Source: Tricharina praecox
Lineage: Eukaryota
NCBI RefSeq assembly: GCF_024521635.1
Contig: NW_026250429.1
Location: forward strand, 186,001 to 250,000
DNA: 64,000 nt
Reading direction: 5' to 3'
Each line of letters starts with the position of its first letter. The first letter of the stretch is position 1. The position numbers were made by a program, and so were the translations under genes. The notes below the pieces were generated by a model that saw only the letters and a list, made by a program, of their open reading frames with translations, was not told the DNA's origin and did not search any database. This document shows, piece by piece, positions 18,644-53,832 of the stretch.

Positions 18644-21109
18644 GGGAGCGCAAAATGGTATTCCTTTTGTTCTATATTCTACATGTTCCTGCTCGCGTCT
18701 GGTTATGCAGTTTTCTTCTTCTTTTCCTGACTCCTGAGCCCTATATCGTGTGTTCTATATTTACCTCGTCCCCTACGTACTAGAATGATAATCTCTGTGC
18801 AATGTGCATTTTTTTCTTTTCTTTTCTTTTCTTCTTGTAAACGTACTTTTCATACGCCGTACTCTACGGGTTCAAGGTTGAAGAATCGAAAATGCACATA
18901 ATCCCAAGTCGCAAGAAATTGACGGTTTTGGCGTTTGGGCCGGAGCTAGGTGCTGCGGCCGCGGAGCTGATGGCGTAACCTCGTAGGCGATTGGCGGCTG
19001 CGTATATCGTGGGGAGGGATGGGTAGGGAGGGGTGGGAGCTGGGAGGGAGGGGTGGGTGGAGCTTTGGAAATTGATAGCTTGTTTCAGCATTCATGCTCG
19101 TGTTTCGGCTGAAATAGGTATTTGGATGGATGGGTGGATGAATGGACGGCTATACTAGTTGTACCCTCTCTGTACTCCGTGGGGCAAATGGCAAATGTGC
19201 GCAGGCGCGGAGAATGGGAGGATATGCGAGCGAGAATTTGTGATCAGATTGCTGATAATCGGATAGGATGGGCTGGGATTGGATGAGCTGGGGAGGGACG
19301 GGCTTAATTCGGTTCGATAAAGTGCTGCTGCTGCAAGGCCGGGGTTCCGAGCCTCCTTCCGCTCCGAGTTTTTAAGTCACAGTGAGCACGGTGAGCCGGA
19401 TACTATCGGCTCGGGCTTCTCCGGTGCTGACTGCTGCTGTCGCTGTAGGCTGTGGTTATACGGGCAAGATGCCTCGTGGACGATTACTGGCTGTGCTGTG
19501 GCCTGTGGGTTGGGAGGCGAGGGGGGGGGTGTGGCTAGAAGGTGAATTGGGCTGGGTGTCAACGTGGCTGCAGCGTGGTAGACGTGGACGGCAGGCTTCA
19601 TGGACGGATATACTGGTCTTAGTGGTATGTCGGCAGGCTTGAGAGCACCGGCTGGTCGCTGGACCGTGTGGGATACATACAACACAGAGTCGTAGAGACG
19701 GGGAGCTATCATCGATTCATAGGCTATCAGCCTTATCTAGCAGTGTATAGTATGGCCGAATTACCTAGGCACCTCAACTTTCAAGGGCAAAGCTACAGCC
19801 TACAGGCAGTCTACCAACTGTGAGGCCACGGCTGGGGATAGTTATGTATCAGTCTGCTTTGCTCATTCACCGCAAGGGCAGCCGATTAGCCTACCGAATG
19901 ATAGGTTTTATGAAGCAGGATCTAAGATAGAAGCGATTTGGAGAGGGTATGAAGTCTGTTCGAATAAGGAGACACTAATATCGGTTCGAATAACGAGATA
20001 CTGATACTGGCTCAAGTAACGATATACGTGGGCACAATTTCAATTCCCAGCAAAACATTAACTAGATTATCTCCCACCAATCCACCACGTCTACGGTCTA
20101 CCACCTGCTTCCGGAGCAGATCTAGATTCCAGAAAAGCCAAGCAACTGCGGCTGTAAATTGCGCAGATACTCGGTCGCTCCCCATCACCTACTCTGCTGT
20201 ATGTACATTGGCAAAAACAAATAGACCTGCGAGGAACACCCTTCCCACTCCCTCATATTCCTCCCTGTCTAGTCTGGTCACCCCATGATGTCGACGGCGA
20301 ACGATATCACTTCCTCTCCGCACACACCATCCTCCTGCTTGCAGTGTTCTGGAGTACATGGTCCGATCTGGACTGGATTGGACTACCTATGTAGAACATT
20401 GGCGGGCTACGAGCCTACGAATTACGATGACAGGTAAATATCTGGTACCTAACTAAGGTGCGTCACGACGAGCTCGAAAGGATACAAAGTCATTGAGGAT
20501 GCAGTTATCTGCGATAAAATTGAAAGCAACAACACGATCTCATGCTCCCTGTCAAAGATTGCACCCATCTGTTCTTAGATGGCTTCGTCTCCTTTCAAGT
20601 AGACAAGAAAAATAACAACTCCTTCAGCTCTAAACCTCCTCCTCTTCGTCCTCACCGTCCTCACCGTCCTCCTCCTCCCTGACTTCCATAGCCTCCTACA
20701 GAATACTGCAGTCTTGGCTTAGTCCTTACTCCTCCGTCTCTCTCGTAGTTCTCATCCCCCCCCTCCTTGCCTTCCATCAGCCCCTTCTCCTCATTGCCTC
20801 ACTTGCGGCTCTTGTAGCTCTTCTGTCCCTCCATCTCCTCCTCGGCGGCGGCGGCAGCATCGTTGTCGACGGTGTCAACGGTGTCAACGGCGTCGACGTC
20901 ATCCTCGACCGCGAAGTTGGCGGCGATGGCCAGCTTGGAGGCTGGGGTGATAGTGGTGGCGGCCATGGTTTCCGTTAATGTGTGATTTGTGGTGGGTTCG
21001 AATGGTTTTTAGTTGCGACTTGTTGAGCGTTGGGAGGTTATTGGCCGATTGATGGTGGGGTAGGAATAAGGCGGCGGGGCAGGTGACATGGCAAGAGGGA
21101 GAGAGAGGC

Positions 21110-21200
21110 GGAAATGGGGGAGGTGGAAATGGGGGGCAGATGGAAATGGGGGAGGTGGAAATGGGGGAGGTGGAAATGGGGGAGGTAGAAATGGGGGGAG
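21110..21200. repeat. ~15-bp degenerate tandem repeat (GGAAATGGGGGAGGT)
   Basis: About 6 visible copies. Confidence 0.85.
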
Positions 21201-22321
21201 GAGGAATCCCACGGGAAAAACCCTAGGCGGTGCAGGGAACTTAATCGCCGTTGCGTCGTTATTGACGCATGTCGCTGCCGTCGAGGCATGTCGCTGCCTT
21301 CGAGGCATGTGATGTCACTCACTCATTGAGTGATTGTGAATTGCTGCCCGAGAGCCACAGAACCAGTGTTCTACATAGTCCGGACTATGCAGAACACTGC
21401 CTACTTATTTCTTGGGCCGTCCGACGGCACCAAGCTGTTGGGACAATACCGGTGATGATAGTGATGGATGTATCAAACATGACCGGACGGAGAGGTAATC
21501 GATGAGACAGAGCCGTTTGATGTAGGGAGCGATGTAGTGAGAGTGCAACGAGGGAGGACTTTGACTAGAGGAGTGTATTGAAACATAGAGTGAGATGTGC
21601 TTGTCGAAGAGTTATGACGGATGGAGCTGGCGGTGGAGCGAGCGATTAGACGTGGGGGTATATGCCACAGAGGGCTGACAGGGATGTGTGATTGTGACAG
21701 CGAAGAAGGAAGAGCGAGGAGGGAGAGGAGGAGGGAAAGGAGGAGGGAGAGGAGGAGGGAGCAGTGTTTGGCAATGTTACACGGTGTGTAGGCCGCGACA
21801 TGATGGTGCGTGGATCAAACAGTCCGGACAATTCTATCCCCCGACCCCACCGTGTGAACCCCACTCTCCTCCCTCTTTCTACTTCCTTATACTCATCTCA
21901 TAGCAAAACATCAACTTCTATTGTTAGTCCTCTCCAGCCATCCTTACGCTACAAAGCCGATTCCTCTCGACACCTCCCGCTTACCGCGTATGGTTGACAG
22001 TGTTTTTGATATCTATATTCTACGATCTTCTACTTCTACTCTCTTTCCATACAATCTCCGTGTGAGACGATAGCCACAGCGCCTCCCCACTTAACCCCAA
22101 AGGCCACCATGGGCCACATAAGTAAGTAAACCACCACCGATGGGCAATTGGGTCAAGCCAGATGCTAACGGCCTAGATTTGAGCGGGGCATCCTCGCAGC
22201 AATCAAGGAGTACTATGATTGCCAATGGACGGCTCGAAGACGAGATCATCAAGGGCCGAGCTGAGCAAGGCCGAGGGAGAGAAGACAATGCCCACTCTCC
22301 TGCTGTAAGAAGCTCTCCATC

Positions 22322-22468
22322 TCGCTCGAAGACGAGATTGTCCAAGGCCTTGTGGGCAAGGCCCAAGGGGAGAAGACAGTGCCCACTCTCCTTTTGCACA
22401 GTGCCGAGGGACTCAAGCTCTTCGAGGGCATCACATACCTCGATGAGTATTACCTCACCAACACCCAA
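22322..22468 (+). pseudogene. N-terminal fragment of a histidine-specific SAM methyltransferase (Egt1/EgtD family); best-preserved of three copies
   Basis: Translates as SLEDEIVQGLVGKAQGEKTVPTLLLHSAEGLKLFEGITYLDEYYLTNTQ, matching the fungal Egt1 motif LPTLLLYxxxGLxLFExITYLxEYYLTN. Confidence 0.85.
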
Positions 22469-22779
22469 GCTTCTCCCGCTTCCTTTATTTGCCGTTGTCG
22501 GCAACCAACTAAGTGAACCATCACGATGGAAGATTGAGTCAAGCCAGATGCTAACAGCGCCTAGATTCGAGCGAGGCATTCATCGCCGTAATCGTGGATC
22601 TCGACCGGGACGCATACAGCTCACGCAACGGAATCCCTGACTGCTACGACCTCTTCGACTTGCACGTCCACCGGCACCTTACCAGCCTCTCAGCGCGCAC
22701 CATCTACGCCCTCTTCGAAGCCGTCTCCAGCCTATGCGGGGCCGGCCGAGAGCCGCGGGCTCTATACGGATGTATCGTA

Positions 22780-22913
22780 GAGATAATCAAGGGCCTTGTG
22801 GGCAAGGCCGAGGAGAGCAGACATTGCCCACCCTCCTGCTTTACGGTGCAGAGGGACTCAAGCTCTTCGAGGGCATTACATACCTCGAGGAGTACTACCT
22901 GACTAACACCTAA
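22780..22913 (+). pseudogene. Frameshifted Egt1-type methyltransferase fragment
   Basis: EIIKGLVGKAE / (frameshift) EQTLPTLLLYGAEGLKLFEGITYLEEYYLTNT*. Confidence 0.85.
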
Positions 22914-23294
22914 GTTGCTTCCGCCCACACCTGCCCCCAGCGAGCCCAGCGACACCACCAGCAGCTTCAACCTTCAACTTCTACTCTCTTTCCATACAAT
23001 CTCCATGTGAGACACGATAGCTATAGCGCTTCACCACTTAACCCCAAAGGCCACCATGGGCCACATAAGTAAGTAAACCACCACGATGGACGAATGTGTC
23101 AAGCTAGATGCTAATAGCGCCTAGATTTGAGCGAGGCATCCTCGCTGCAATAAAGGAATATTTTATTTGCCGTTGTTGGCAACTAAGGTCGCCCTATGGG
23201 AGCAAGCTGCTCCCTCTTCCTTTATTTGCCGTTGTCGGCAACCAACCAAGTAAACCACCACGATGGACGATTCAGTCAAGCCAGATGCTATTAG

Positions 23295-23396
23295 CACGAG
23301 GTTGGGTTGTTTGCCGACGGTGCGACGGTGAAGGTCGTGGGAGAGGAGACGTTCAGGCTGTGTAAGGAGCATGCGGATGAGGTTATTCAGGTCTCG
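23295..23396 (+). pseudogene. Internal fragment of biosynthetic threonine deaminase (Ilv1/IlvA)
   Basis: Translates as [34 protein letters not shown], matching the IlvA motif VGLFADG(V/A)AVKxxGxETFRLC. Confidence 0.85.
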
Positions 23397-23669
23397 GCAT
23401 CCTTGCAGCAATCAAGGAGTATCTACCCCCTGCCCCCGCCAGCGAGCCCAGCGACACCACCAGCAACTTCAATCTTCAACTTCTACTCTCTTTCCATACA
23501 ATCTCCATGTGAGACACGATAGCCACAGCGCTTCACCACTTAACCCCAAAGGCCACCATGGGCCACATAAGTAAGTAAACCACCACCGATGGACGATTGA
23601 GTCAAGCTAGATGCTAACAGCGCCTAGATTCACGCGAGGCATCCTGGCGGCCATAAAGGAATATTTCAT

Positions 23670-24170
23670 TTGCCGTTGTCGGCAACCAACCAAGTAAACG
23701 ACGTGCCTGAGGATATTTCGTACTGGCTCGTCGTGAGAGAGGTCAGGGTCTTTGGACATGGTGCGGGTTTCCCGGAGGAAGACATTGCGGCCGGAAAAAA
23801 GGTTGTTGCTAGCAAGAAGGATACCGCTGGCAAACGCAAGAAGATTTCCAGGACCGGTCGCCCGGCGCGCAAGAAGGCCCGCCAGGCAGCTCGGGATAGC
23901 ACGGATTCAGAGTCGGAGAGCGACTCCGGATCCGTGCTGTTGGGTGGTAAGAAGGCTTTGGCCATCAAGCTGTGCAAGGTGGAACCGGAGCTGGAAATGA
24001 TGAAGAAGCAGTTCCAGAATGAATACAGAGTCAACCATGACTCTGTCGCCTCCGAGTAACGGAGGGTCAACATGGACGATCTACGGACGACCTTTGAGCA
24101 CGGAGATGGGGAAGGAGGACGGCAGGCGGCCGGGTGGAGGATTTTCTTTGTCAGGTTCTGCTTTCTGCTT
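23670..24170 (+). pseudogene. Unidentified Lys/Arg- and Ser/Asp-rich coding-like fragment
   Basis: Open frame with an NLS-like KRKK..RKKAR, an acidic DSTDSESESDS and a helical tail. It has no ATG start, and a protein-like frame continues past the stop at 24059. Confidence 0.3.
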
Positions 24171-25284
24171 TGCGTACCTGTTTCTGTTTTTGCTTTTGGT
24201 TGTTGTATTTCCTTTCTTTATCGGCCATAGCCTTAGTGCTCCAAGCTGTATGAACAATAAATAAATAAATAAATAAATACGGACGACCTTTTTAAGGGAC
24301 GGCGACACTGCAGGAACACAAGCACAACTTGTTAGCTGAGGACGACAAGCTTCGAGCAAAGCTCGACGTCGCGAGTTATCCCGTTTAACCCGATTACTTA
24401 GTCGGTTAGTTCTGAGCAGTGCAGTTGGTTTGGTGGATTCGGCTTATCATGTACTGACGTCAACTTTCAGGACTCGTTGTCAATTCCGGCCATGACATTT
24501 GAAGAAATGTGGGATAAGGTATGACACGCAATTGGTATACGCAATGTGGAATGAGACAGCTCGAGGATGGAAGACAGATGTGGTTCTGTAGACTGTATGG
24601 CACTGTATCTCTTGTTTTTGTTCTGTATAAACCGCCCATGTTGCCCGCTCTTTATAAATGTCAAGTAAAACAGTCGATTCAATCCCTTGTTCTACATCTC
24701 TCTCTCTCGAGTCCCTCTACCGCATCCTCTGCCCGTACGATCCGAAATACCGCACCACTTAAACGACAACATCGAAACGGAGAAGCATTTTCTCCTCTCT
24801 GAGTGCAAGCGGATCGTCACAGATGACCGTCATTCACTGCTCTCTGATACGATTGATACGGTCGAGGCGTTGGATTTCCGAAAAGGTATGTACTGGTACC
24901 GCAAATAAATACTACTGTTCTTCTATAGTATCCTGAGTTCACTTCTGCATGCCGTCCATATATCGTGTGATCACCATGTTGCCATTTATTAAGTTTGGCC
25001 AGTTCTAACTGGATGTTTAAACTGGCTCTGTACGCAGTTCGGTTCAGTGGTTCTAACAAATCTTCGAATCAGTTTGCACTGTTGGCAGGTCTGGGTTGTA
25101 CATACTTCGATGTTCAATCACAATATAGGGTGTGATAATGAACATTGAACTCGAGTGTTCACAAGTCCAGGATGAGGATATCCCAGGTGATATCTATAGC
25201 CGATGCTCTTTCGGTACCTCACGCCATCAGCCTACCTGCACGACTCCAGTCGACGTATCTACGCCTTCCAACTCTCGTCACTCA

Positions 25285-26632
25285 CCCACACGGTGGTCAA
25301 AGCACGCGATATCACTCGCCACCTACCACCGCTGCCACGATGATCGCACTGGCGCGGTCGTAAACCGTATTCCGTGCTCGCATACCCCCACAGAGCGTGC
25401 TCGCACCGTCAGCCATCACGTCGCCCGCCTCACGCCTATCCGTGCGTGCGCCGTGCGAGATCGGAGAGTGCCATGAGTCGTAGGCCATGACATGCCGTGG
25501 ACGGTGGAATCGTGGACCGCCGCTTTAGGCAACGCAACGCAACGTAGATTGCGGTATTAACTACTAGCGATACGATCCTTTCTATCGTCGCCACTCCTGC
25601 TCCGCCTCTCACCCACGACCGTCGACGGGGCGCGCTAGCTCGCTCGCTCGCGGGACATGATGATACATCTCGTCCGTACTAGGTAATACACCCACTGCTT
25701 CAAGGCTCGAATCGGCAGCGGAAGCCTCAAGCTCGAGTTTGAGCTTGAGTTCGGCCGCTTCTGGACTCTGGATACTGTACCTCCCGTGTTTGGACTGCGG
25801 TGGCGGACGGCGGTGGTGGACGTTGACGGCGACGTCAGTGAGCATCTCGCACCGCTCGCCGGTAGGTAGGTAGGCTGGAAGGCTGGAAAGTGTGGCAGGC
25901 AGGTAGGCAGGCAAACCAGCGTATGGCGTGAGCGGAAACGAAAAAGCACCGGTATGCACAGGTACAGCCTGGGGCACACGCTGCGTAGTGGGGTTGTGTT
26001 GTGTCTTTTCCCCCGCGATGGTGTTCTCAGTTTTGTCGTGCAGGCTGCAGCCTGTGCTAGGGGTTGGTGCCTACCAGAAGGCTGCGACTCTGCGAGGTTG
26101 GCTGATATGCGGCCTTCTCGTATCGTATTCTTCCATGCAGGGTGGCAGATCGGATGGATCATGGACCCTTATGCTTCGCTGCGGACCCGCAGACCTGCTG
26201 TGTAGAAACACATCTTCTCTATGTATTTCCCAGCCGAGGGCTTCAACTTTCGAACTTCGAAGCGTCTGGCTGCCTGGCTGCCTGGCTGCCACTTCGGATC
26301 CGAGGGTGTTGTGCTTCTGCGCTGGACAGTGTATGTATACGGTAGACTCTAGAGCAGTAACATTGACGCTGGACCGGACCGGACACACACGCCGATAGGT
26401 ACTGTAGAGTATGTAGCTGTAGCTGTAGCGACTCATATCTTTTATCGACGCCGTTAGATAATGATTCGCATACGTAGAGTACCCTGCGGGATCTTTTCTT
26501 TTCTTTTTCTTGTTTCGTCATCCTACGGCTGTCTATTACTGGTACTACTCTATGTTTCACGCTGCGCCCACATGACGCACGATGAGCGAACACCCGGACA
26601 GTGCACGGGGAATCACTCGGCATACTATCCCG
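25285..26632 (+). repeat. Left arm of a ~1.35 kb diverged inverted repeat
   Basis: Colinear with the reverse complement of 48240-49625. Shared blocks include CACGGTGGTCAAAGCAC, GAGTTCGGCCGCTTCTGGACTCTGGATAC, GCCACTTCGGATCCGAGGGTGTTGTGCTTCTGCGCTGGAC and ACTCTATGTTTCACGCTGCGCCCACATGACGCACGATGAG. Confidence 0.93.
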
Positions 26633-45100: not shown

Positions 45101-46934
45101 CACTGTGCACTCCTACATAGGAGCGGCTGGATATTTGCAGATTCACAACTCGCAGCTCGTGGGAGAGGGAGAGTCGAGACGGGACCGAACACGGGAGGGG
45201 AGGGGTAACCATGGTGTACATATCAGCTATGTAGTAAGCTAAGCAGCCCTACCGGTGAACCGTGACGATCCGGAAGCTGGAGCGGATAAAGATAGATCAT
45301 AGTTAGAGGTTACATAGAAGTTAGAACTGGCTGGAGACGGGGTCGCGGTCGCGGGGTGGCTTAGGTATGAGGGGTGGCTTACTCGTAACTCGGATGTGGC
45401 TGGGGAGTTTGAGTTTGGCTTTGAGTTTGGCTTTGAGCGTGCCAGACTTGTAGTGCGGTGTGAAGGAGTCAAGTATATCTGGAGTTTCGGGACTGGGCTG
45501 CGCTGGGAAAAGTTACCGCCCAGCCGCTCAGCACAACACACCGCAGTACAGCGCATTGGTGAGGCCTCAGGCGCAGGCGGGCGTACGTGAAGTACTGAGG
45601 CGGCTAGTTACTATACATACGCTCGGGTGCGGGTGCGGTGTGGGGGCGTGGCCTGGCCGAGCTTTCAGCGCCTCAGGCACCTTCGTCCTAGGCATGTACA
45701 TGGTTACCGGGCGTAGATAGTCAGGGCCCAGGCAGCACTGCAGCGAATGTGCCGGCTGGTGGACTAACTAAGCTCTGGACGATGGACGATGGACGGCAGA
45801 CGATGGACGGTGGACAATGGACAAGAACATGGCAACAAACAACCGTCGAGAATAGTTAAGAATATCTGAATAAGTCGTTGCCGCGTCGTGATGCGAACTG
45901 TACAGCTGTACAATACAGCTTTACCGATATACCCAGTACAGATGATACTTCTGACGCTGAATCCTGATTGCAACCGTCCGCAGTCACCAGTGCGCACGTT
46001 GGCTGGAGCCGAGGGTGAGATTTCAGCCCTACGGCCATGTTGCGAGCTTACGAGCTTACGATACAGCTACAGCTACCGGTATGTTTATTGTTGCTATGTA
46101 TGATACGTACATGGATTTCAGAATACTTTTGCATTCCGGTGCGGCGGTGCCTGGTAGGCAGGTATCCCCGCTGTCACCACTCACCTCCAGGCTTCCGGTC
46201 TGGAGGTGGAAGGGTGGAGGCTGGAGGCTGGAAGCTGGTCTGGCGTCACTTCTAAATCTACACTTCTACTGTTCTACACATGTATGATATGTACTCCGGA
46301 GGCTGGAGCCCGAGTTGGGTCTCTTCAAGCCTCAATCCTCAAGCCCGAAGGTCTAGAAGTGGCGCAAGAGTATGCACTATTACATATAGACGGGCCTGCT
46401 ACAGCCTGCTCAGAGCTCTATGTAGGAGACTAGGGACGAGGAAAGATGTGTTTCTGAATCGTCCCTCCAATGCCCGCATAAACACGTTCCAAATTCCCCT
46501 CAGTCCGCAAGGCTGGAGTCTGAAGTCTGGACACTGGAGCGACCGGCCGGGATGCGTCGAGACTCGACAGTTGTCCTTCCTGCACCGAAGCTTCCATCTC
46601 GCCTTGCGGGGGAAAGCTGCCCTATCCACGTCTCGTCTGGGGCGCAAGGCTGGCACCCATGCATACTTAGGTAGAGTAGGTACACGACCGTGGCATAACG
46701 GCGATACGGAACGCAGGAATGCAGGAATGCAGGAATATAGCCTGCAGCCTGTAGCAGCCGTGGGAGCCTGCGAGCCTGGGGGGTGCGAGGGTGCGTGTGA
46801 TCCACTCATCCGGCGCATGCATAATGATGGGGCAAAGCTGCAAGATGATAGATCTGCTCTTTAAGCTTTAAGCCTTTAACTGGGACACGCGGCAGCCACA
46901 GTGCCACTGTCTGCCACGCGACGACGTGAGGCGT

Positions 46935-47153
46935 GGCTGCGTGGCTGGATGGCTGATGGCTGCGTGGCTGGATGGCTGATGGCTGCGTGGCTGGATGGCT
47001 GATGGCTGCGTGGCTGGATGGCTGATGGCTGCGTGGCTGGATGGCTGATGGCTGCGTGGCTGGATGGCTGATGGCTGCGTGGCTGGATGGCTGATGGCTG
47101 CGTGGCTGGATGGCTGATGGCTGCGTGGCTGGATGGCTGATGGCTGCGTGGCT
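46935..47153. repeat. Perfect 23-bp minisatellite (GGCTGCGTGGCTGGATGGCTGAT) x9.5
   Basis: Nine identical full units and one partial unit, with no spacers. Confidence 0.97.
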
Positions 47154-52182: not shown

Positions 52183-52387
52183 GTGCTCGCATCCGAAGAG
52201 CTTCACCCCCACACAGTCCACGGAGTCCAGGCTCACATCCAAAGTGTTTCACCCCACACGCAGTCCAGTGCTCATATCCAAAGTGCTTCACCCCCACCCA
52301 GTCCAGTACTCACATCTAAAGTTCTTCACCCCACACGCGGTCCAGTGCTCACATCTGAAGAGCTTCATCCCACACCCAGTCCAGTGC
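52183..52387 (-). repeat. ~39-bp degenerate tandem repeat x5, derived from the last 13 codons of the adjacent gene
   Basis: Unit GCACTGGACTGGGTGTGGGATGAAGCTCTTCAGATGTGA plus four diverged copies. Confidence 0.88.
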
Positions 52388-53832
52388 TGCCTCCTCGGCC
52401 TCCCCCACCAGTGGCCGAACACTGCGATCCCAGCTGGCGAACGACTTCTGCACGCTTTCGGCCTCGGCAGACCAATGATACCTGTCAATCGCGTCGCACA
52501 TTAGCCCTGCACCATCATCCAGCGGGGACGGAGAAAAAAATCTAACCCATCCAGCGTCGTTTCCGGCCTCGCATCGGTCAACGCGAACGCATCGACGAAC
52601 GCCTTCCTTCGATGTTTCCACCTCCTCGTCTCCTCATGCATCCATGCCCGCAACTTGTCACTCCTATCTCGTCCGTGGCCTCCCTTCTCGAAGCACGTAA
52701 CGGGTTGCACCACGCTCGTCGTTGCCCTCACGACCACACGCGTCTCGTTCCCCCATAGCGCATCCACCTCATCAAAGAACCTCCGATACTCCTTTTTCAT
52801 CTCCCACTCATCGTTCCCCGGCATCCACAGGCCAATATTATACACCACGAGGCCTGGTGGCGTCTTCGTCCTCCGTATCTCTTGCAGAGCGGATCCACTC
52901 AGCCCTTCCGCGCCGAGGAACACGAACGAAACATCCACCCTCCGCCCGGTCGAGGGATTGTGCCATGCGCCATACCGATTACCATGCCTGCCTCCGTCGC
53001 CCTCACACCCGTGACCGAATAGCTGCGGCCACACGATGGAGCACACATAGCCCCTCGTCACCGAGTCGCCTAGGAACAGCACGCTCTCCACCCCGAGCTC
53101 ACCGAGCGCCTCCTTCACCGTCCGATGCGGAATCTTGCAGTTATGCGGAACATAGACATACCCTCCGCTCTCCGTCCACCCGTACATCTCCTTTACCTCG
53201 CCCTTCACCGCATCGGCCCTTACCCACCTCGCATCGACCGCCTGCGTAAACCCATCACACGCCCTATACCCGTCCACCCGTCCCCTCCCGACGACCAACA
53301 ACCTCGCTGGCGCACCCCTCGCCATCCGCCTGTACGCATGCAACTCGTCCTTCACGCCCGCATCCTGCTGCCTTGCGCACGCCAACGCGTTCGGCCACGC
53401 ATACACCATGTAATCCCCCGGATCCGCGATCGCAAACGTGGCGGTGACCGTGCGGCCGTCGGCCGAGACACGGAACGCGCGTGCGGGGACGCTCCCCGCT
53501 GTCGGCCCGTAGTACTGGATGTAATAGCTCGCCGGACAGTCGGCAGAGTACACGGCGGTGCAGGCGATCGACAGCGTGAGCGGCCGGCCGGCGGTTGCCG
53601 CCAAGGGGGACGTCAGCGTCCATGGTCCGTGGTGTAGCCGCGTGCGCTGCGAAAGCGGGTTTGTACTGGGGCTGTAGGGAGGTGCTGCGCTGGTGGCGCC
53701 CGGACGGAAGATGCTGTTCGGATCTTCGGCGGCGGAGGGCGAGGTGCGGAGATGGTAGAAGCATAGCAGTGATAGCGGGAAGAGAAGGAGGAGGCGCCGC
53801 GGTGGGAAGTATGCGAAGTATGGGAGTAGCAT
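52349..53832 (-). CDS. Type II membrane SGNH/GDSL-like protein (PC-esterase / NXPE-like; candidate O-acyltransferase or esterase); exons 53832-52547, 52481-52349
   Basis: N-terminal RR plus a hydrophobic anchor, a beta-rich Ig-like region, VLFLGDSVTR (GDS nucleophile motif) and VVYNIGLW. Removing the intron at 52546-52482 (GT..CTAAT..CAG) yields TTLDG|YHW, a DxxH catalytic motif. Confidence 0.82.

Follow-up and report, generated by a model that had tools for sequence, protein, structure and literature searches.

Positions 22025-24095 of the window, by which we mean the whole 64,000-nt stretch of Tricharina praecox DNA analysed here, are a patchwork of about 2 kb made of short host-gene pieces, lying in gene-poor surroundings of ordinary GC content on contig C25, one of the 104 that make up the 38.4-Mb genome. 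The nearest named relatives of the host's Egt1 and trehalase belong to Geopyxis, Sphaerosporella and Trichophaea, which places the host in the Pezizales. The pieces trace to at least five unlinked genes, namely egt1 on C19, threonine deaminase on C1, an orphan ORF on C39, an orphan gene X on C10 and probably neutral trehalase on C17. The account that we lean towards, although with slightly less than even confidence, is that this single-copy array was built in place by stepwise template-switch capture and local re-duplication, and that an older core of it was once translated under selection. An earlier note on this DNA had proposed a mosaic spanning 22030-24170; the patchwork is real, but its limits are those given above, and 24096-24278 is a separate dispersed repeat (Table 1).

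Table 1. Features of the array and of the elements beside it, in window positions.
Feature	Position	Strand	Details
Family Z copy	20368..21382	-	5' block with 19-bp repeats, variable middle, conserved 3' core; adjoins mosaic
Palindrome, 36 bp	21364..21399	.	1 mismatch in 18 pairs; Z 5' end; two Z-type end motifs head to head
Module copy 1	22025..22212	+	leader, intron 22122-22176, exon 2 with trehalase-like piece 22187-22213
egt1 piece A	22233..22301	+	56/69 nt to C19 gene; one 1-nt insertion
egt1 piece B	22308..22465	+	132/158 nt to C19 gene; codons 35-87; frame open
Linker and partial module copy 2	22466..22579	+	intron 22513-22564, exon-2 stub
C39-type orphan-gene internal piece	22579..22778	+	138/200 nt (69%), gap-free, frame open
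egt1 piece C	22780..22911	+	84% to C19 gene; one 1-nt deletion
Linker and module copy 3	22912..23186	+	intron 23069-23124; trehalase-like piece 23135-23165, 27/30 nt to C17
Linker and partial module copy 4	23203..23294	+	truncated intron 23250-23294
Threonine deaminase (ILV1) internal piece	23295..23396	+	91% to C1 gene
Module exon-2 scrap	23396..23421	+	fourth trehalase-like copy
Module copy 5	23429..23700	+	intron 23571-23627
Orphan gene X 3' end	23699..24095	+	stop codon and beginning of 3' UTR; donor C10
SINE-like repeat, 5'-truncated	24096..24278	+	(AATA)n tail; TSD 24083-24095 / 24279-24291

A search of 21800-24300 against the genome contigs returned 18 matches out of 15 candidates, and the origins that the note had read from the letters largely survived it. 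Its three Egt1-type fragments match the single egt1 gene at 81-84%, two of them with a Pfam hit to Methyltransf_33; its internal threonine deaminase fragment matches a PALP-family gene at 91%; and its two unidentified coding-like fragments can now be placed, one in the orphan ORF and the other in gene X. All five donors contribute in sense on the + strand, as claimed, an arrangement with a chance of 1/32 (1/16 without the trehalase), and their dispersal over several contigs bears out an origin elsewhere and excludes a single decayed, colinear parent locus. Overlap at the junctions between pieces is 0-2 nt. Pfam confirmed the donor families but gave no match to the 33-residue ILV1 piece, the identity of which rests on the DNA match. 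The egt1 pieces span codons 35-87 and leave the start codon outside. The C39 donor is an ORF of 481 codons, and gene X is an intron-bearing gene whose captured 3' end aligns at 331/451 positions with gaps (73%). Both orphan donors (L003 on C10 and L015 on C39) look intact, belong to no Pfam family and gave no usable match in the ESM Atlas; gene X also contains short lysine/alanine-rich repeats, which are contracted in the captured copy.

The blocks that recur between these pieces are copies of a module with a leader, an intron and a second exon. Three copies are full (22025-22212, 22972-23186 and 23472-23700; 87-92% identical to one another in a self-comparison) and two are partial, both beginning within the intron (22484-22579 and 23221-23294), which agrees with the five copies previously counted; a 26-nt scrap adds a sixth trace. 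The module introns are 45-57 nt long with GT, branch site and TAG all present. The module is itself composite, in that its exon 2 holds 30 nt matching the neutral trehalase gene. A degenerate form of the exon-2 pattern, searched genome-wide, picked up nothing beyond the four copies at this locus and the trehalase gene, with zero control matches, and all three differences in the 27/30-nt match to that gene are silent. The likeness is limited to nine residues, and flanking residues that are invariant in 115 of 120 homologs are lost, so that the C17 gene is a probable, though less than certain, donor of the exon-2 piece.

The manner in which the pieces have diverged, which the earlier note does not mention, is what points beyond simple decay. 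For a piece that has been neutral since capture, the expected silent fraction of its differences from the donor is 0.41; between array copies it is 26%, the share of random changes that are silent in these pieces. Against the first value, egt1 piece B differs from the host gene by 18 silent and 8 replacing changes (p 0.004; per-site divergence 0.44 silent, 0.07 replacing) and piece C by 14 and 6 (p 0.009), while B and C differ from each other by 12 silent and 8 replacing changes (p 0.0014). The four trehalase-like copies, compared over 27 nt, encode the same nine residues, and all 8 of their extra alleles fall at third positions (p 1.5e-4); this segment was picked after inspection, and the whole of exon 2 in three copies gives 12/21. 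Such almost wholly silent differences between repeated pieces are unexpected for dead DNA. The C39-type piece departs from its donor at 33 of 66 third positions and 11 of 67 second positions, and four of the six differences in the ILV1 piece are silent.

Gene X supplies a control at the same locus: its captured copies show 11 silent and 30 replacing differences, or 15 and 29 relative to the gene, and Fisher tests separate it from the constrained set with p 5e-4 (X copies) and 1.4e-3 (X versus gene). Since the X copies drift as neutral expectation predicts, local mutation bias and RIP are unlikely causes of the silent bias, and RIP was rejected as the source of the substitutions, which bear no RIP signature. 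One could nevertheless regard the array as neutral junk from the host's own genes, with the silent bias a product of chance or local mutation bias. The silent-site counts are small, the frames are broken, and a young hexosaminidase piece elsewhere, in a unit of the dispersed family Z described below, is also silent-rich (6/3, not significant); but this reading must dismiss two independent within-locus tests, those between egt1 B and C and among the trehalase-like copies, along with the X control and the lack of a RIP signature, and we regard it as decidedly improbable. We infer instead that the egt1, trehalase-like and C39-type pieces diverged for the most part while they belonged to translated sequence distinct from the present genes.

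How such a history could have unfolded is suggested by the layout of the array. Short sense pieces of unlinked genes have been joined with almost no junction homology, and array blocks have been re-duplicated locally with shifting breakpoints. The joining would have come about by template switching during gap or fork repair; capture or template switching had already been proposed as the builder, and the unlinked sense donors and minimal overlaps fit it. The same process probably fills the middles of Z, whose 5' end abuts the array. An older core, consisting of the module, an egt1 piece and a C39-type piece, may for long have been part of a spliced, translated chimeric gene. If purifying selection acted on this gene while it was present as several copies or repeats, its copies would have come to differ at silent sites, and patchy gene conversion, which is an extra assumption of the account, would have held leaders and introns closer together. 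The core would then have been broken by frameshifts and by the later arrival of ILV1, X and egt1 A, and would now be drifting, at about 4-5% per lineage. The SINE-like repeat landed last.

Traces of such a gene can be sought in the frames. Spliced from the canonical donor, the leader is in phase with the constrained exon-2 frame, the ATG going unused; the frame of egt1 B continues across intron 2 into the constrained exon-2 frame, as does that of egt1 C save for a single stop; and the C39 piece shares its frame with the start of egt1 C. These in-frame joints, 3 of about 10, are at chance level and are at most a faint sign of a former chimeric gene. At the remaining seven or so joints the frame is broken, and with three small indels in the array a long product is impossible now. 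Translation from the module ATG with the canonical GTAAGT donor runs into a stop within nine codons of exon 2 in two of the three full copies and carries on beyond that only in full copy 1. To judge from the sequence, most likely no functional protein is made today.

Other observations sit less easily with a lost chimeric gene. Module introns differ between copies by 3-7 positions per ~55 nt and leaders by 6-9%, an overall range of 5-13% against 35-60% at the adjoining silent sites, a gap not given by any single genealogy. The leader lacks coding bias (6 silent and 10 replacing changes in its best frame) and relatives, a phmmer search with its 44-residue frame having returned two matches, both to unrelated repeat proteins. 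The chance level of in-frame joints also counts against the idea, and the silent-rich hexosaminidase piece hints at a more general cause of the bias. Alternatively, in an array built in the same way, the templates of the constrained pieces may have been working but diverged orthologs in related fungi, the DNA having arrived by introgression or horizontal transfer; some copies would have been re-templated by homology, and none ever translated here. Foreign donors would explain why silent divergence is confined to pieces with conserved donors, why leaders and introns have diverged so little, why the leader has no donor, and why the C39 match is so poor and biased towards third positions. They would also suit a genome with only one egt1 gene, and two sites at which the pieces, unlike the host gene, carry the residue that is common among relatives. 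On the other hand, egt1 B and C share nearly the same end point and are followed by the same linker, which would call for repeated replacement; the host gene matches the egt1 B protein best (44/53 residues, against at most 41/53 in the best 12 of 120 homologs); and ILV1 and X are consistent with host donors. A lost chimeric gene, itself a tentative explanation, is favoured over diverged foreign donors, which we consider possible but rather unlikely.

Two further ideas would give the silent variants a use. The array could be an RNA-level device, transcribed into small RNAs against conserved host or competitor genes, with the silent variants recording its targets. Its pieces do come from conserved stretches of metabolic genes, and small RNAs linked to gene capture have been described in maize, as far as the consulted part of that report goes (10.1101/777037). 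Against this, all pieces are in sense, no hairpin is present, Rfam gave 0 matches over 20000-25000, no better foreign match was found, and the recognisable pieces are necessarily the conserved ones. We give this reading hardly any weight. As for silencing of the parent genes, which the earlier note had raised, perfect 21-nt matches to the donors should be few at 81-91% identity. Barely more credible would be an acquisition archive, in which Z-linked capture takes in short conserved coding segments of several related fungi and re-templates copies already present by homology, yielding a synonymous egt1/trehalase bank that could guide non-self silencing while sparing host genes.

The assembly might itself be chimeric at the joints. 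Misassembly would hardly produce pieces 9-31% diverged from the host genes with codon-patterned substitutions, which are unlike read errors, and 55-95% of 417 words sampled from 21000-25000 are present in four runs from three studies (the richest of which may be the source sample, two runs with a share below 0.2 having been set aside; the runs listed include no RNA run). An assembly artefact is accordingly the explanation to which we attach the least credence.

The module had been cast as a mobile carrier, with the proviso that a single-copy module would argue against it, and the module indeed proved to be confined to one locus. No copy was detected outside the 2-kb array when the genome was searched by DNA, twice by pattern and twice by protein, searches that give lower bounds; the module-donor search produced one weak match on C39 (E 0.17), and the module pattern had 0 matches in JGI metagenome contigs. 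A Helitron1 3' end (GC-rich hairpin 10-12 nt before CTRR) is absent from the + strand of 21301-26500, the sole minus-strand hairpin-CTRR match in that interval being the 36-bp palindrome (9 such matches occur across the whole window). No TIR pair longer than 10 nt surrounds the array, the longest exact inverted words between its flanks being 10 nt (2 cases); no target-site duplication was found at the mosaic edges, and no Z-type asymmetric terminal inverted motif around the mosaic. A mobile carrier for the array is not supported. With no second module locus, no ends, and a SINE-like repeat that has its own TSD, we conclude that the array is single-copy and grew in place, by capture and then local re-duplication.

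It could still be argued that a non-autonomous Helitron or Pack-type transposon carried the array as cargo, moved with it as a unit and has since lost its ends. The cargo itself is of Pack type in comprising several unlinked, co-oriented gene pieces with introns kept and short junction overlap; the palindrome and a possible Z-type stump lie 640 bp upstream; and the asymmetric inverted motifs seen in 5 of 31 Z units loosely resemble the Helitron2-type ends described in the accessible part of PMC5148889. But the missing ends and single copy speak against such a transposon, Helitron_like_N (PF14214) had no match in the genome, though that search's own control matched nothing either, and the silent bias would be left unexplained. 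We think it improbable.

The SINE-like repeat at the 3' end has a history of its own. Its 183 nt sit between 13-bp TSDs within the 3' UTR of the X piece, and it is SINE-like in belonging to a dispersed family (37 matches), in its (AATA)n tail and variable TSD, and in being truncated at the 5' end; a clear TSD was seen for the window copy and for 1 of 8 other loci. Family members are about 345-400 nt long (L004:1343-1700), and several of the best copies lie close to contig ends. Because the TSD encloses the repeat alone, the repeat did not carry the remainder of the array, and its insertion is later than and separate from the mosaic pieces. Non-LTR retroposons, through 3' transduction or template jumping, form a natural comparison class: the array is like their products in its sense-biased cargo and in the tailed repeat with TSD at its 3' end, and unlike them in that the TSD surrounds this repeat only and that introns are retained in the cargo.

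Shared termini with different cargo had also been predicted, and although the array lacks them, they do occur in the adjoining family Z. Its 3' core was found in at least 38 other places on 12 contigs (C25, C51, C39, C47, C15 and 7 more) among the 64 matches listed, with 40 of 58 candidates scored. In 40 stretches chosen around 3'-core matches, plus the window, profiles pair a conserved 5' block with a 3' core in 31 units, the middles of which span 0.24-1.5 kb and are largely unrelated. The 5' block has up to ~20 copies of its 19-bp repeat, with a small variable-loop palindrome upstream. One subfamily has middles made up of tandemly arrayed short acidic ORFs, and another has gene-fragment patchworks; internal direct repeats occur in 10/31 units. 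The middle of the window copy holds a 55-codon acidic ORF (20966-20799), and imperfect inverted motifs of 16-19 nt lie near both of its ends. These motifs, taken from the window copy, which is itself among the 31 units, recur at the 5' end in 9/31, at the 3' end in 13/31 and at both in 5/31, as against 4 and 2 of 300 controls. No TSD was found at Z, the five units inspected sharing words of only 0-5 nt.

In one Z unit a start-plus-intron block occurs twice, and the same unit holds part of a C39 gene with its intron retained as well as a hexosaminidase piece of 202 nt that matches C21 at 193/202 nt (96%). The hexosaminidase piece is absent from a sister unit and is a young capture in one of the two; the sisters (L066:3283-4700, at C25 13.3-14.7 kb, and L065:3837-5150) have the repeated start-plus-intron block in common. 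Shorter fragments of gene X lie inside two Z units, at C25 102 kb and C51 23 kb. Recognisable housekeeping cargo is rare in Z: in a scan of 19/31 units that set aside the window copy and 11 acidic-ORF units, Pfam matched one of the 90 sense frames and none of the 70 antisense frames. Z is thus put together in the same manner as the mosaic. The link is circumstantial, and no Z 5' or 3' profile match flanks the mosaic. The right arm of the palindrome may represent what is left of another Z-type 5' end, one facing the mosaic; the comparison scores 35 against a shuffle maximum of 30, most of it contributed by the palindrome itself. A head-to-head second Z promoter at 21824-21829 was rejected (score 45, below the shuffle maximum of 58, with no profile match).

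Plant transposons routinely capture fragments of several genes, and Pack-MULEs, a close point of comparison here, carry gene-fragment cargo within TIRs and a TSD. In the consulted part of a study of Pack-TIRs (PMC8277862), single-copy elements are proposed to form by gap filling or FoSTeST, with a median junction overlap of 2 bp; the array resembles them in its short unlinked gene pieces, kept introns, 0-2 nt overlap and single copy without transposition, and differs in lacking TIR and TSD, in having donors on other contigs rather than nearby, in its heavy internal re-duplication and in its fungal host. Gene-capturing Helitrons of maize gain several gene fragments stepwise, according to the portion of PMC3288121 available to us, much as one Z unit has an inserted piece that its sister lacks, whereas the array has no hairpin-CTAG end. 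In the sections consulted of PMC4289320 and PMC5148889, Pleurotus and Fusarium Helitrons are described as capturing host fragments little or not at all. The Helitron2-type FoHeli elements, as partly seen in PMC5148889, are like Z, though not the array, in their asymmetric inverted motif with the 3' one inset and in their clustered arrays; unlike them, Z has both motifs in just 5/31 units, blurred ends and no autonomous partner that we could find.

Among the records listed in literature searches there was no report of such a locus in Pezizales. Fungal multi-gene fragment capture is seen here both at one dense locus and in a dispersed family with fixed ends and swappable middles, and the silent-site pattern suggests that pieces passed via working genes other than the present host genes. 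Either a chimeric gene was born, selected and lost, or DNA of related fungi was taken up repeatedly, and either reading bears on how orphan genes arise in Pezizales.

Further repeats were noted in passing. A ~1.5-kb repeat at L066:7851-9390 (C25 17.9-19.4 kb), whose ends match on opposite strands over ~340 nt, has copies on C24, C39, C40, C8 and C48 and is probably a long-TIR, Mutator-like non-autonomous element. Just past Z 3' ends lie two other dispersed repeats, L058:6180-6806 (~630 nt, >30 matches) and L066:4776-5003 (~230 nt, >15). The window also contains minisatellites at 46934-47153 (23 bp x 9.6, 100% identity) and at 52219-52388 (39 bp x 4.4), the latter within a possible reading frame.
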